NCBI GenBank assembly: GCA_031416195.1
Contig: JANOTE010000139.1
Coordinates: forward strand, 1 to 31,137
DNA length: 31,137 nt
DNA from: Rhodoferax sp.
GTDB lineage: Bacteria > Pseudomonadota > Gammaproteobacteria > Burkholderiales > Burkholderiaceae_C
Direction: 5' to 3'
The notes below the pieces were generated by a model. That model was not told the origin of the DNA. It saw only the letters and a list, made by a program, of their open reading frames with translations, and did not search any database. The translations under genes were made by a program, and so were the position numbers. Positions 6,640-11,268 of the stretch are shown piece after piece. Each line of letters begins with the position of its first letter. Within the stretch, counting starts at the first letter, position 1.

Positions 6640-8973
6640 ATGCCTCAAACCGCCGCGAAAAACGAGAACAAGCAAACCGACCTGCGTCGCGCTGCGCTCG
6701 AATACCACGAGTTTCCCACGCCCGGCAAAATCGCCATTGCGGCGACCAAGCAGTTGGTCAATCAGCATGACCTGGCGCTGGCTTATTCGCCCGGCGTTGC
6801 CGCCCCGTGCGAAGAAATCGTCAAAGACCCGAACAACGCCTTCAAAGACACCGCACGCGGCAACCTGGTGGCGGTCATCACCAATGGCACGGCGGTGCTG
6901 GGCCTGGGCAACATTGGACCGCTGGCTGCCAAGCCGGTGATGGAGGGCAAGGCGGTTCTGTTCAAGAAATTCGCGGGCATTGATGTGTTTGACCTGGAGA
7001 TCAATGAGCGCGATGATCTGGACAAGCTGGTGGACATCATCGCTTCGCTGGAGCCGACGTTTGGCGGCATTAACCTCGAAGACATCAAGGCGCCAGACTG
7101 CTTTTATGTGGAGCGCCAACTGCGCGCGCGCATGAAGATCCCGGTTTTTCATGACGACCAGCATGGCACCGCCATCGTGGTGGGTGCGGCCATCTTGAAC
7201 GGCATGAAGGTGGTGGGCAAGGACTTGAAAAGCGTCAAATTGGTGACGTCGGGCGCAGGTGCTGCGGCCCTGGCCTGCCTGGGGCTGCTGGTCAAAATCG
7301 GCATTCCGCGTGAAAACATTTTCGTAACCGATTTGGCGGGCGTGGTCTACGAAGGCCGTACCGAGCTGATGGATGAAGACAAGATCGTCTTCGCGCAAAA
7401 AACGTCGGCCCGCACATTGAGCGAGGTAATTGAAGGCGCCGACATCTTCCTGGGCCTGTCAGCCGGCGGCGTGCTGAAGAAAGACATGGTCGCGAAGATG
7501 GCGCCGCGTCCGTTGATCCTCGCGCTAGCCAACCCTAACCCTGAGATCACGCCCGAAGATGTGAAAGCGGTGCGCAGCGATGCAATCATGGCCACCGGTC
7601 GCACCGACTACCCGAACCAGGTCAACAACGTTTTGTGCTTTCCGTACATCTTTCGCGGCGCGCTGGATGCCGGGGCATCGACCATCACGGTCGAGATGGA
7701 AATTGCCGCTGTGTACGCGATTGCCGAATTGGCGCAGGCCGAGCAAAGCGAAGTGGTGGCCGCTGCCTACGTCGGCGAGGCGCTGCAATTTGGACCGGAG
7801 TATTTGATCCCCAAGCCGTTTGATCCGCGCTTGATGATGAAGATTGCACCTGCCGTGGCCAAAGCCGCAGCCGACAGCGGTGTCGCACTGCGTCCCATTG
7901 CAGACATGGATGCGTACGTCGAGCGGTTGCAAAGTTTCGTCTACGCCTCGGGCACGACGATGAAGCCGATCTTCAATGCCGCCAAGAAAGCGTTGAAGAA
8001 GCGCGTGGCCTATGCGGAAGGGGAAGACGAGCGCATCTTGCGTGCAGCGCAAATTGTGGTGGACGAAGGCCTGGCCCGGCCCACGCTGATCGGCCGGCCC
8101 GCCATCATTGCGCAGCGCATCGAGAAGTTTGGCCTGCGCCTAAAAGAAGCGCTGGACTATGACGTCGTCAACGTTGAGCAAGACCACCGCTACCGCGACT
8201 TCTGGCAAACCTACCACCGCATGACCGAGCGCAAAGGCGTAACCGTACAGGTCGCCAAGATTGAAATGCGCCGTCGCTTGACCCTGATTGGTGCCATGCT
8301 GCTGCACAAAGGCGATGTGGATGGACTGATTTGCGGCACCTGGGGCACGACCGCGATACATCTGCACTACATCGACCAAGTCATTGGCAAGCGCGCCGGT
8401 GGCAGCCCCAGCACCGAGCAGGACGTTCGCGTCTATGCCTGCATGAACGGCTTGATGCTGCCAGATCGCCAGATTTTCCTGGTTGACACCCACGTCAACT
8501 ACGACCCGACGGCACAAGAGCTGGCTGAAATCACGGTCATGGCGGCCGAAGAAATGAAGCGTTTTGGTCTACATCCGAAGGCGGCGCTGCTCAGTCATTC
8601 CAACTTTGGCTCAAGCAACCTGCCCAGTGCAGTGAAGATGCGCCGCACGCTGGAGATTCTGCGCGTCGAGGCGCCATGGCTGGAGGTCGACGGTGAGATG
8701 CATGGTGACGTGGCGCTGGACAGTGCTGCCCGTAAGATTCTCATGCCCAATAGCAGCCTGGAAGGTAATGCCAACCTGTTGGTGCTGCCCAACATCGATG
8801 CCGCCAATATCGCCTACAACCTGCTGAAAACCGCAGCCGGCGGCAATATTGCGATCGGCCCGGTGTTGCTCGGAGCCGCAAAACCGGTGCACATCTTGAC
8901 TGCCAGCACCACCGTGCGGCGCGTTGTGAATATGACAGCACTCACCGTAGCTGACGCAAACGCCAGCCGCTAG
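6640..8973 (+). CDS. maeB: NADP-dependent malic enzyme with C-terminal phosphotransacetylase-like domain
   Basis: Motifs [59 protein letters not shown], followed by a PTA-like domain ([22 protein letters not shown]); 777 aa. Confidence 0.97.
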
Positions 8974-9034
8974 CTCCTTTTTGTGTAACCAAAATAAGAA
9001 GCTGGTGCTAACTTACTGACGCAATCCCACCCAG

Positions 9035-9057
9035 GCCTGCTTATTTTTTGAGCAGGC
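9035..9057 (+). terminator. Possible weak terminator hairpin after maeB
   Basis: GCCTGCT-N9-AGCAGGC 7-bp stem. The T-run is about 7 nt downstream rather than adjacent, so this call is uncertain. Confidence 0.3.
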
Positions 9058-9059
9058 AC

Positions 9060-9119
9060 TTGCGTTTTTTACCCAAATGCGCGACACTAGACGGGTTAAG
9101 AGTTTCGGGTTAACCCGAA
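9060..9119 (+). promoter_or_regulatory. Candidate sigma70 promoter plus perfect 16-bp palindrome upstream of the ribonuclease gene
   Basis: TTGCGT (9060-9065)-N17-GACACT (9083-9088). Perfect palindrome TTCGGGTTAACCCGAA at 9104-9119 and an extra half-site CGGGTTAA at 9092-9099. Confidence 0.45.
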
Positions 9120-9139
9120 CCCTTCTTTCAGGTTAATAA

Positions 9140-9577
9140 GTGGGGTTATCTGTGGCGAAAAGTTGGCTGTCGAAATGTTCGGTAAGGTATTTCGTCGAAC
9201 ACTCGACTAAGTTAGCGCTTACTGCAATATTGGTTGTTGCGAGTGTTGCACCCTCAGGCGTGTACGCCAAGCCTGCGGTTCCCGACAGTTTGGCGACGAT
9301 CAAGGTTACAGAATTGCCGCAGCAGGGCCAGCAAACTTATGAGCGGATTCACCAGGGTGGCCCGTTTGCTTACGACAAGGACGGCACCGTGTTTGGCAAC
9401 CGTGAACGGTTGTTACCTACAGCAAAACGCGGGTTTTACCGGGAATACACCGTTAAAACGCCAGGTTCAAGAGACCGGGGAGCCAAGCGCATCGTGTGCG
9501 GTGGGCAACCCAAAACGCCAGATTCATGTTTTTACACGGCAGATCATTATTCGAGTTTTCGCCGGATCCAGCCCTGA
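9140..9577 (+). CDS. Secreted guanyl-specific ribonuclease (barnase/RNase Sa, N1/T1 superfamily)
   Basis: Signal-peptide-like KLALTAILVVASVAPSGVYA, then DGTVFGNRERLLP, YREYTV (catalytic Glu), RGAKRIV and YTADHYSSF (catalytic His). Start codon uncertain (GTG 9140 or 9152). Confidence 0.9.
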   Translation: MGLSVAKSWLSKCSVRYFVEHSTKLALTAILVVASVAPSGVYAKPAVPDSLATIKVTELPQQGQQTYERIHQGGPFAYDKDGTVFGNRERLLPTAKRGFYREYTVKTPGSRDRGAKRIVCGGQPKTPDSCFYTADHYSSFRRIQP

Positions 9578-9634
9578 CAGTCGTTGTAATTCATGAGTTT
9601 TTTAAAAGAGTTTTGTAATTTTAGAGAAAGTGAA

Positions 9635-10138
9635 GTGGACGCGATTATGCAAGTTCGTAACGACAACCCAGCGCCAGGCACCAGCCACGCGCCCAAGCCT
9701 GCGGGCGATGGCAGTGAAACGCCATCCCGCGCCTCAAATGACACGCCCTTGAAGGGCGTGCGCACCAACATTGTGCAGTCCATTCGCGCGTTTCGCGTGC
9801 AGGATTTGCAGGATGCCGCGATTCATATGGGCCAGCATTTTCTGTACGCCAACCTGGCCAACGCGTTGACGAAACAGGACGTGCTGGACATGATTGGTCA
9901 GCAGTTCATGTTGCCCATGCACGTTGGCAAAAACTTTGACGCGTTGTACGACAGCATGACCGACCCGGTTCACAAATCCGGCCCACAGCCCGGCTTCATC
10001 GCCGTGCTGGAGCATATTCCTGCCAACCTCAAGTTTGACAAGGAGGCGCGCGAGCAACTGCTGGACATCTTCCGCGATGCCGCCGACTACTGGGGAGATC
10101 GGAAAATCCCGTTCCGATGCTTCTATTCTTTTCTGTAG
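9635..10138 (+). CDS. Barstar-family ribonuclease inhibitor
   Basis: Barstar signature HVGKNFDALYDSMTD, plus FIAVLEHIP and LLDIFRDAADYW; directly downstream of the RNase. Start uncertain (GTG 9635 after AGAAAG, or ATG 9647). Confidence 0.9.
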   Translation: MDAIMQVRNDNPAPGTSHAPKPAGDGSETPSRASNDTPLKGVRTNIVQSIRAFRVQDLQDAAIHMGQHFLYANLANALTKQDVLDMIGQQFMLPMHVGKNFDALYDSMTDPVHKSGPQPGFIAVLEHIPANLKFDKEAREQLLDIFRDAADYWGDRKIPFRCFYSFL

Positions 10139-10338
10139 CCCGTTCTGCACACACCAGCCAAGCAGAACGGGCGAACGAGGCCAAAAGCGACAACCGTGCC
10201 GCTGAAAACCTCTCAGGCATTGAATTAGTCAACGAAACGGGCGAGAAAATGCCCACGGACAAGTTGTTGGATGTGTCGGCGTTTGCGTTGCGGATGAGCA
10301 GTCCGTTCAACGCCAGCTACTGGCTAGCCGCCGCATGA
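10117..10338 (+). CDS. Small ORF in the -1 frame of barstar ending in ssrA-like SYWLAAA; either a frameshift extension or a small protein (possible ATG 10249)
   Basis: Open from 10117 to TGA 10336-10338, overlapping the barstar stop, and upstream of the operon terminator at 10482-10505. Confidence 0.5.
   Translation: MLLFFSVARSAHTSQAERANEAKSDNRAAENLSGIELVNETGEKMPTDKLLDVSAFALRMSSPFNASYWLAAA
10138..10172 (+). other. Perfect 11-bp RNA hairpin starting in the barstar stop codon (candidate frameshift stimulator)
   Basis: GCCCGTTCTGC-ACACACCAGCCAA-GCAGAACGGGC. No U-tract follows on either strand, so it is not an intrinsic terminator. Confidence 0.8.
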
Positions 10339-10481
10339 TTTCGCTCCAATATCAACGCGATACGGCGTTGCAGCTCCTTGCCGTGCTGAAAGCACTGTCT
10401 GCGTCGCTGCGCCTTGTCTCGCGCTGATCTTGGAACGAAATCCGTTGGCGTAATGACGGTTTCAAAACTGCCAAGTCCGTC

Positions 10482-10505
10482 AAGCCCGCTTATGCGGGCT
10501 TTTTT
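10482..10505 (+). terminator. Intrinsic terminator of the RNase-barstar transcript (may also serve the convergent rsmA operon)
   Basis: AAGCCCGC-TTAT-GCGGGCTT followed by TTTT. Confidence 0.85.
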
Positions 10506-11268
10506 AATTCAACTCCTGCGCGAGCGCAACGTATTGCGCTACAGGCACTTCTTCGGCTCGGCGCTGAACATCAAATGTGCCACTGAAAGACTTTAATTCC
10601 AGCCACTTGCCCAACGAATGACGCAGCAGCTTTCTACGCTGGCTGAAGGCGACCCTCACCACTTCGCTCAGGCGATTCACATCGACCGAGGCAAAGTCCC
10701 CGCGGGGAACCATGCGCACGACGGCGCTGTTGACGCGCGGCGGCGGATTAAAACTCTCGGGTGGGACGAACAGCACGCTTTCCATCGCGTAGCGCCATTG
10801 CAGCATCACGCTCAGGCGACCATAGTCTGAGGTGGCGGGTTTGGCGACCATGCGGTCGATCACTTCTTTTTGCAGCATGAAGTGCTGGTCTTGGATGACA
10901 TCGACGAAATCGAGCAGGTGAAACAAGATCGGCGTGGAGATGTTGTAGGGCAGATTTCCTACGACGCGCAATTTTTGCGGTGCCGACAGTCGGGCCGCGA
11001 GCAGTGCGAAGTCCACATTCAGCACATCAGACTCAATCACCGTCAACGCCGGGTGAGCGCGCAGTTTATGGGCCAAATCGCGATCCAGCTCGATCACCGT
11101 CAACTGCCCCAAGCGTTCGACCAACGGCTGCGTCAAAGCCGCCAGGCCGGGGCCGATTTCAACCATCGCATCGCTGGGCTGCGGAGCTATCTCTTTGACG
11201 ATGGTTTCGATGATTCCCGCATCGGCCAAAAAGTGCTGACCGAAGCGTTTGCGGGGAATATGCTTCAC
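10504..11268 (-). CDS. rsmA: 16S rRNA m6,2A1518/1519 dimethyltransferase
   Basis: [33 protein letters not shown] and [13 protein letters not shown] motifs. Confidence 0.97.

Follow-up and report, generated by a model that had tools for sequence, protein, structure and literature searches.

We propose that the barstar gene of a Rhodoferax sp. genome likely ends in a programmed −1 ribosomal frameshift site. The gene lies in a stretch of 31,137 nucleotides (nt) (contig JANOTE010000139.1 of assembly GCA_031416195.1, positions 1 to 31,137; hereafter the window, meaning this whole stretch), which comes from a fragmented metagenome-assembled genome (MAG) of 680 contigs that is 80% complete. The 0-frame barstar product ends ...FRCFYSFL*, a CFYSFL ending also found in its closest relatives, and the 3' end of the gene reads TTC TAT TCT TTT CTG TAG. 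Around this end lie a T_TTT tetramer (10129-10132), a hairpin and, in the −1 frame, an open reading frame (ORF) for a further 68 residues, hereafter the tail. A first-pass annotation, made from the letters of the window alone, had described the barstar end, the tetramer, the hairpin, the 68-codon −1 frame and the terminator beyond it, and this description holds throughout. Our reading is carried by the anatomy of the site, its conservation, the covariation of the hairpin stem, the selection seen in the −1 frame and a junction identical to that of natural in-frame proteins; we infer that the shift is ribosomal.

In the proposed mechanism, most ribosomes would read TCT TTT CTG TAG and make a short barstar of the same length as in outgroup families; since those outgroups are tail-less, the 0-frame product equals the ancestral protein. 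Some ribosomes, with UCU and UUU in their P and A sites, respectively, would be delayed by the 11-bp hairpin that starts 5 nt downstream and would slip back by one base: tRNA-Phe would move from UUU to UUU, and tRNA-Ser(GGA) from UCU to UUC. The slipped ribosomes would then continue in the −1 frame and produce barstar-long, ...CFYSF-SVARSAH...YWLAAA, with a 68-residue disordered tail. Rare codons, clustered at 5 to 12 codons before the slip site, may space the ribosomes, so that the hairpin can refold. By analogy with other U_UUU motifs, the efficiency of the shift is probably low, a few per cent.

The probable slip site and the downstream hairpin

The first-pass annotation had taken the T_TTT tetramer as the slip motif. 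The tetramer is present, but the conserved unit is wider: the heptamer T_TCT_TTT, not the tetramer alone. We compared 101 distinct frameshift cassettes with 82 loci of relatives in which the tail is in frame with barstar. TAT, TCT and TTT (codons −2, −1 and 0) are each found in 100% of the cassettes, versus 44%, 26% and 22% of the in-frame loci, so that TAT TCT TTT is fixed at three synonymous sites that are free to vary in the in-frame relatives. Constraint extends to two more bases, T10126 and T10129, the very ones that the heptamer requires. As a slip site for bacterial −1 programmed frameshifting, the heptamer lies in register and is invariant. The re-pairing outlined above would be perfect in the A site and would keep A:U, G·U and G:C in the P site; tRNA-Phe(GAA) and tRNA-Ser(GGA) were both found in the genome. 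In E. coli, U_UUU is among the three most shift-prone tetramers, with a hierarchy of A_AAG >> U_UUC > U_UUU, and is used by insertion sequence (IS) elements (PMC4066793).

The first −1 codon is TCN for Ser, and its third, 4-fold degenerate position falls on base 10134. All four letters occur there, and the −1 frame always encodes Ser while frame 0 encodes L, P, R or Q. This pattern indicates that selection changes frame precisely at the slip site.

The T run could also act during transcription: if RNA polymerase added a U in the run of four T, part of the mRNA would be in frame, and one extra T does restore the frame in a natural variant with five T (L031, described below). We consider such slippage very improbable. 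Runs that cause polymerase slippage have ~7-9 T or more (reviewed in PMC5009743), and four T are far below this. Slippage leaves unexplained the constraint on T10126, which lies outside the run, and the downstream hairpin suits a ribosomal mechanism, not one of the polymerase. DNA and metatranscriptome contigs across the T run show no indel, and since only contigs were inspected, rare slippage variants would be invisible in them.

The hairpin, the predicted stimulator of the ribosomal shift, starts 5 nt after the T run and has a perfect stem that is not followed by a U tail. With a folding energy of −20.2 kcal/mol (z −6.0), it is matched by 0 of 200 shuffles. There are two deep subtypes of the hairpin, with arms GCCCGTTCTGC/GCAGAACGGGC in subtype 1 and GCCCGCTCCCA/TGGGAGCGGGC in subtype 2 (e.g., Aquincola); both have the same spacer (5 nt), stem (11 bp), loop (13 nt) and slip site. 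Across 80 distinct cassettes, 4 of the 11 stem pairs carry double compensatory changes between the subtypes (70 cells), and 99.5% of the stem cells are paired, against 29-44% in slid controls; the compensatory signal was reached in 0 of 500 shuffles. The loop sequence is free to vary. Compensatory stem changes, to which the first-pass annotation had pointed as a check, are thus present in four pairs. In the in-frame loci no hairpin is conserved, and the median fold energy is −13.6 kcal/mol, versus −21.6 in subtype 1 and −25.9 in subtype 2. Taken as the downstream structure of a programmed −1 frameshift, this element has a 5-nt spacer, a stable stem and covariation. No pseudoknot or further conserved structure was seen near the hairpin; RNAalifold on the 101 cassettes gave the hairpin only.

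The hairpin also leaves a trace in the coding sequence that overlies it. Among 77 subtype-1 loci, the 15 codons over the hairpin have a synonymous divergence (pS) of 0.099 and a nonsynonymous divergence (pN) of 0.055 (pN/pS 0.56). Synonymous divergence is therefore suppressed ~6-fold (pS 0.10 versus ~0.6 in the flanks), which points to a constraint at the RNA level.

The −1 frame tail and its in-frame relatives

In the window, the −1 frame reads SVARSAHTSQAERANE...MSSPFNASYWLAAA and ends YWLAAA*: a conserved SVARSAH..AERA segment is followed by a variable linker and then by a conserved C-terminal motif. The tail stop (TGA, TAA or TAG) falls in the same alignment column in all relatives, mid-tail indels are all multiples of 3, and the orthologs are free of stops between the slip site and the end of the tail. 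Among the same 77 loci, the last 34 tail codons have pS 0.62 and pN 0.083 in the −1 frame (pN/pS 0.13), while the same nucleotides read in the two other frames have pS 0.14 and 0.08, pN 0.25 and 0.25, and pN/pS 1.8 and 3.2. The 40 barstar codons upstream have pS 0.58, pN 0.049 and pN/pS 0.083. Purifying selection on the tail, which the first-pass annotation had expected, is thus present in the −1 frame and in that frame only.

The arrangement is widespread. Twenty loci of the same genus are 79-86% identical to the window across 9900-10345; the variation in barstar and in the distal tail falls on third codon positions, and the block TGCTTCTATTCTTTTCTGTAG and the hairpin are almost invariant. 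Searched at the protein level, 290 of 301 family genomes have the gene. From 170 loci gathered, the tail is in the −1 frame in 79 and in frame in 91, and no other offset was seen; all 79 of the former, found by protein similarity alone, carry TAT TCT TTT C.G TAG and the hairpin. Of 401 family genomes, 297 (from 153 of 201 genera) have exactly one copy of the DNA pattern TATTCTTTTCNGTAGCCCGYTC (at most 1 mismatch), and its reversed control gave 0. Named carriers of the frameshift type include Rhodoferax ferrireducens, Polaromonas, Variovorax, Ottowia, Ramlibacter and Aquincola. Gene callers have annotated the tail ORF as a hypothetical protein of 72-82 residues 2551 times (e.g., in Rhodoferax ferrireducens, Variovorax, Ottowia and Aquincola).

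Could the frame change be a homopolymer assembly error, or could a recent 1-bp deletion have inactivated the reading frame and left a tail in decay? The window does come from a fragmented MAG, one locus (L081) has an extra indel, and another (L032) has an N in the run. Either explanation has next to no chance of being right: the 4-T state is found in ~300 independent assemblies, including closed genomes, and in raw-run contigs as well, and the tail is under strong purifying selection at synonymous saturation, as the values above show. As for the two loci themselves, L032 (G264:C1), in a one-contig genome, has its N inside the T run (TCTNTTTCAG) and so reads in frame, with the hairpin intact; the N may not be biological but a patch from assembly or curation. 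L081, in a long-read MAG (1.1-Mb contig), combines a frameshift cassette with a second frame change in the variable linker, by which the distal tail returns to frame 0; the second change is probably a long-read indel error.

The product that we predict for the shift exists as a natural protein in relatives. A junction query, in which barstar was joined to the tail with an X at the break, matched database barstars of 195-225 residues that run in a single frame, ...DRKIPFRCFYSF-SVARSAH...GEKMPTDKLLDVSPLALRMSSPFNAGYWLAAA. CFYSF-SVAR stands within one ORF in 117 of the 120 matches listed (at least 117 database proteins), and 82 distinct in-frame loci were obtained. This natural junction is identical to the product predicted for slippage by −1 at the TTT codon. 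Such in-frame genes were seen in Limnohabitans, Hydrogenophaga and Ramlibacter, and in part of the Rhodoferax and Polaromonas MAGs; these loci have no T run, no conserved hairpin and common codons. The frameshift arrangement is therefore kept across species, and its signals disappear from in-frame genes.

In other Burkholderiales families, and in two members of this family, barstar stops at FYSF[A/E/Q/L]* and is tail-less. In an outgroup-rooted tree of the barstar domain, whose support is modest because it has 126 columns only, the order is (outgroups, (subtype 2, (tail-less, (subtype-1 grade, at least 5 nested in-frame clades)))). This branching points to a frameshift that was already there in the family's ancestor and gave way to an in-frame fusion on several occasions. 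The in-frame state as the ancestral one was considered and dropped, since the outgroups are tail-less and the in-frame clades are nested inside the frameshift grade. The two tail-less members of this family, L209 (G362) and L210 (G227), end FYSFL* (CTG TAA) and have a terminator directly after the stop, like the outgroup families; in the tree they stand between subtype 2 and subtype 1. One genome has two copies of the gene: L150 (G201:C9) is of the normal frameshift type, and its paralog L031 (G201:C7) has five T and is in frame. In L031, the hairpin is still there with one G·U, and the tail is degenerating (..NMPTDKLSDVSPLAMRMSNPFNAGNWTAQA); this copy looks like a recent in-frame fusion event caught early.

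The tail has no match in Pfam. When its 36-residue end was searched with phmmer against 1.84 billion representative proteins, the motif was found only at the ends of barstar-long proteins and in tail ORFs. AlphaFold2, run with 67 sequences, models the barstar domain with confidence and gives a predicted local distance difference test score (pLDDT) <50 for residues 165-230. The tail is therefore predicted to be a disordered linker followed by a conserved end of 30 residues.

Upstream codons, start signals and gene layout

Upstream of the slip codon, the frameshift cassettes carry a cluster of rare, purine-ending codons. In the same 101 cassettes and 82 in-frame loci, with rarity taken from the codon usage of the genome, Arg −5 is CGY in 7% of the frameshift type versus 95% of the in-frame type, Arg −10 is CGY in 15% versus 91%, Ile −8 is ATA in 58% versus 4%, and Gly −12 is GGR in 52 of 62 versus 0 of 21. 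Arg −19, outside the cluster, is normal in both (CGY in 76% versus 89%). The first rare Arg codon (10100-10102) lies exactly 10 codons upstream of the slip codon (10130-10132), a distance of about one ribosome footprint, so that it coincides with the expected position of the A site in a trailing, collided ribosome. At the IS3 pseudoknot, −1 frameshifting falls when ribosome load is high (PMC6815119), and such an effect is a possible reason for the rare-codon cluster.

The last codon of the cluster creates an ATG or GTG at 10117 in the −1 frame, and this ATG, not mentioned in the first-pass annotation, also opens the −1 ORF of the window. The locus could accordingly hold two overlapping genes: the tail would be a separate protein of ~73 residues (MLLFFSVARS...), started from ATG/GTG 10117 by direct initiation or by reinitiation after the barstar TAG 19 nt downstream, and the in-frame relatives would be gene fusions. 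Of 80 shift loci, 74 have the start codon here, and CGY is hardly ever used for the Arg codon from which it arises; the tail ORF has its 2551 annotations as a separate hypothetical protein, and the outgroups are tail-less, so that the tail could have begun as a separate ORF. We nevertheless hold two genes to be quite unlikely. In 7 of the 101 distinct cassettes, the Arg codon is CGC, which puts CTG in place of ATG/GTG, and six such loci checked (of the 80) keep perfect tails although ATG, GTG and TTG are all absent from the whole open tail frame. There is no Shine-Dalgarno (SD) sequence at a usable distance, a weak SD-like core being found there in only 8 of 89 contexts of the RTG; the conserved start codon plus ribosome-binding site of an overlapping gene pair is thus lacking. 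The purine-ending bias is regional, for it also affects Arg −10, Ile −8 and Gly −12, where it creates no start codon, and the RTG therefore looks like a by-product. Two genes would further leave unexplained the invariance of T10126 and T10129, at which changes would only turn F to L in a dispensable N-terminus, as well as a covarying hairpin at frameshift spacing and the loss of both signals once the gene is in frame. A start of the tail at its own ATG, at 10249, which the first-pass annotation had named as a way for its idea to fail, was rejected: relatives have CTG, TTG or CTA there, with in-phase indels upstream. That this ATG is not conserved speaks for frameshifting.

Several points weigh against programmed frameshifting at this site. 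The heptamer is not of the canonical X_XXY_YYZ form, since re-pairing in the P site requires a middle G·U. In E. coli, U_UUU is far weaker than A_AAG, and shift-prone tetramers with a pseudoknot give 0.26-5.6% (PMC4066793); the long barstar form may therefore be very minor. In 94 of the 101 cassettes, the −1 frame has an ATG or GTG at 12 nt before the slip site, and the tail could be translated from it independently or by reinitiation. An SD-like upstream stimulator is not conserved: AGGUG stands 10 nt before U_UUU in ~1/3 of the loci, and the remaining loci have CGAUG, AGAUG or CGGUG. Finally, the balance of the two isoforms is not critical everywhere, since entire lineages have the tail in frame or lack it.

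The features of the locus are collected in the table. The gene scores 83.9 bits against Pfam PF01337 (cut-off 23.4) and has an RNase gene of family PF00545 directly upstream, which places it in the barstar family; the RNase is the partner of this barstar. The PF01337 match covers the protein up to 3 residues before the 0-frame stop. The start of barstar is likely ATG 9647, and the ORF is open from ATG 9593. The gene carries an N-terminal extension (window 9593-9830) of ~40-80 residues, rich in P/A/S/T, that classical barstar is without; it differs in length among species, and the low pLDDT of residues 1-40 (36-58) predicts disorder. In its genomic position, this is a core-genome inhibitor gene between maeB and rsmA. 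Dozens of copies of the palindromic repeat that follows the tail, at 76-92% identity, occur on other contigs of this genome and in every genus genome searched. At the barstar locus it is present in a few species only and missing from most orthologs, and it is no part of the frameshift cassette. In 8900-10700, Rfam found no known RNA family, with sub-threshold terminator-like matches only.

Table. Features at the barstar locus of the window (positions are those of the window).
Feature	Position	Strand	Details
Secreted RNase, barnase/RNase Sa family	9140-9577	+	Pfam PF00545, E 1.8e-23; ORF listing; signal peptide
Barstar 0-frame ORF, short isoform	9647-10138	+	Pfam PF01337, E 7.9e-24
Rare-codon, purine-ending cluster GGR .. 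MGR .. ATA .. MGR	10094-10117	+	Codons −12 to −5 before the slip codon
Slippery heptamer T_TCT_TTT	10126-10132	+	TAT TCT TTT invariant in 101 of 101 distinct shift cassettes
−1 frame tail, 68 codons and TGA	10132-10338	+	TGA 10336-10338; SVARSAHTSQAERANE...SSPFNASYWLAAA
Spacer, 5 nt	10133-10137	+	Contains the start of the 0-frame stop TAG 10136-10138
Hairpin, predicted stimulator	10138-10172	+	11-bp stem, 10138-10148 with 10162-10172; 13-nt loop
Conserved C-terminal linear motif GEKMPTDKLLDVSxxALRMSSPFNAxYWLAAA	10240-10335	+	Invariant columns of a 67-sequence alignment; free end ...AA
Palindromic repeat of ~100 nt, multi-copy, like repetitive extragenic palindromes (REP) or miniature inverted-repeat transposable elements (MITE)	10339-10440		Between tail stop and terminator; strong fold
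Intrinsic terminator	~10482-10506		Sequence and fold; common to barstar and convergent rsmA/ksgA
rsmA/ksgA gene	10504-11268	minus	Convergent with barstar

Tail function and relation to known frameshift systems

The first-pass annotation had read the tail as an ssrA-like degron that would set the inhibitor:RNase ratio. While the frameshift half of that interpretation is strongly supported by the comparisons above, the degron half is weakly so. The conserved end that it had looked for exists: among >180 shift and in-frame tails, ~90% end in AA, as YWL[A/S/T/N]AA or, in subtype 2, WLNAA, and an AA at the very C-terminus is what an ssrA-like degron would have. The tag of transfer-messenger RNA (tmRNA) in the genus is ANDERFALAA (ARAGORN, two genus relatives); no tmRNA was found in the window's own genome, an incomplete assembly. 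In a loose alignment, this tag and the tail end FNAGYWLAAA have the same N (−9), aromatic residue (−5) and terminal AA, but L and A are swapped at −4/−3, and the tail conserves 30 residues, not 10. The ssrA tag is added by trans-translation, whereas the tail is encoded in cis and would be added by frameshifting. From this resemblance, a degron function of the tail is plausible, and the strictly kept C-terminus ...W-L-x-A-A suggests recognition of a free end, e.g., by ClpXP as an ssrA mimic. Two facts count against a degron: 30 residues are conserved, more than a degron alone, and whole lineages have the tail in frame on every molecule while others are tail-less. Modelling the last 25 residues of the tail in complex with SspB of this genome (residues 1-118) returned a score of 0.01, which speaks neither for nor against binding.

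A joint reading of these observations is a doubtful one, and we offer it as such. The cassette would be an ancient, tunable isoform switch, in which a minor barstar isoform bears a cis-encoded, ssrA-mimicking tail that hands it and the bound RNase to ClpXP, and rare codons couple the efficiency of the shift to ribosome load or tRNA supply. The tail would have arisen de novo in the −1 frame of a former 3' untranslated region, reachable only by frameshifting, and would later have become fixed in frame in several independent events.

Conserved −1 programmed frameshifts in bacterial genes that belong to neither mobile elements nor phages are very few; examples are dnaX, copA and csoS2. Like E. coli dnaX (tau/gamma), barstar is a chromosomal, non-mobile gene with a slippery heptamer, a near stem-loop, a stop close to the slip site and two isoforms that share their N-terminal part. 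In dnaX, the heptamer is A_AAA_AAG, an SD-like element upstream is a stimulator and the shift truncates the protein, whereas barstar has U_UCU_UUU, no conserved SD-like element and an upstream rare-codon cluster, and the shift would extend the protein by 68 residues. Transposases of the IS3/IS1 families are alike in another respect: the 0-frame product ends just past the slip site, the −1 product is a fusion (orfA-orfB), and Z_ZZN tetramers, including U_UUU and U_UUC, are combined with a downstream hairpin or pseudoknot (PMC4066793). Those genes belong to mobile elements, whereas the barstar cassette is part of a vertically conserved core-genome gene in at least 153 genera. E. coli copA(Z) and Halothiobacillus csoS2 are likewise rare cases, ordinary bacterial genes in which a conserved −1 programmed frameshift yields two functional isoforms (PMC5009743); their shifted product is shorter, and motif, gene family and taxon are unrelated to the barstar case. 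In the papers searched on barstar and frameshifting, including Antonov 2013, Atkins 2016 and Sharma 2014, we found no mention of barstar as a frameshifted gene and no paper that links the two, in agreement with the first-pass annotation, which knew of no description. Barstar is apparently a new, undescribed gene for programmed −1 frameshifting.

If the frameshift reading is true, ~2500 database entries, in which the tail is a separate hypothetical protein and barstar ends early, need correction in both annotations. The cassette looks canonical in its signals, spans at least 153 genera of a large family, including Rhodoferax, Variovorax, Polaromonas, Ottowia and Aquincola, and comes with natural controls built in: in-frame lineages, tail-less lineages and a T5 revertant. 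It would therefore be a natural system for how frameshift sites are born and resolved, and one that can test whether rare-codon clusters tune frameshifting. It also raises the question of what role a second barstar isoform would play in a pair of secreted RNase and inhibitor.

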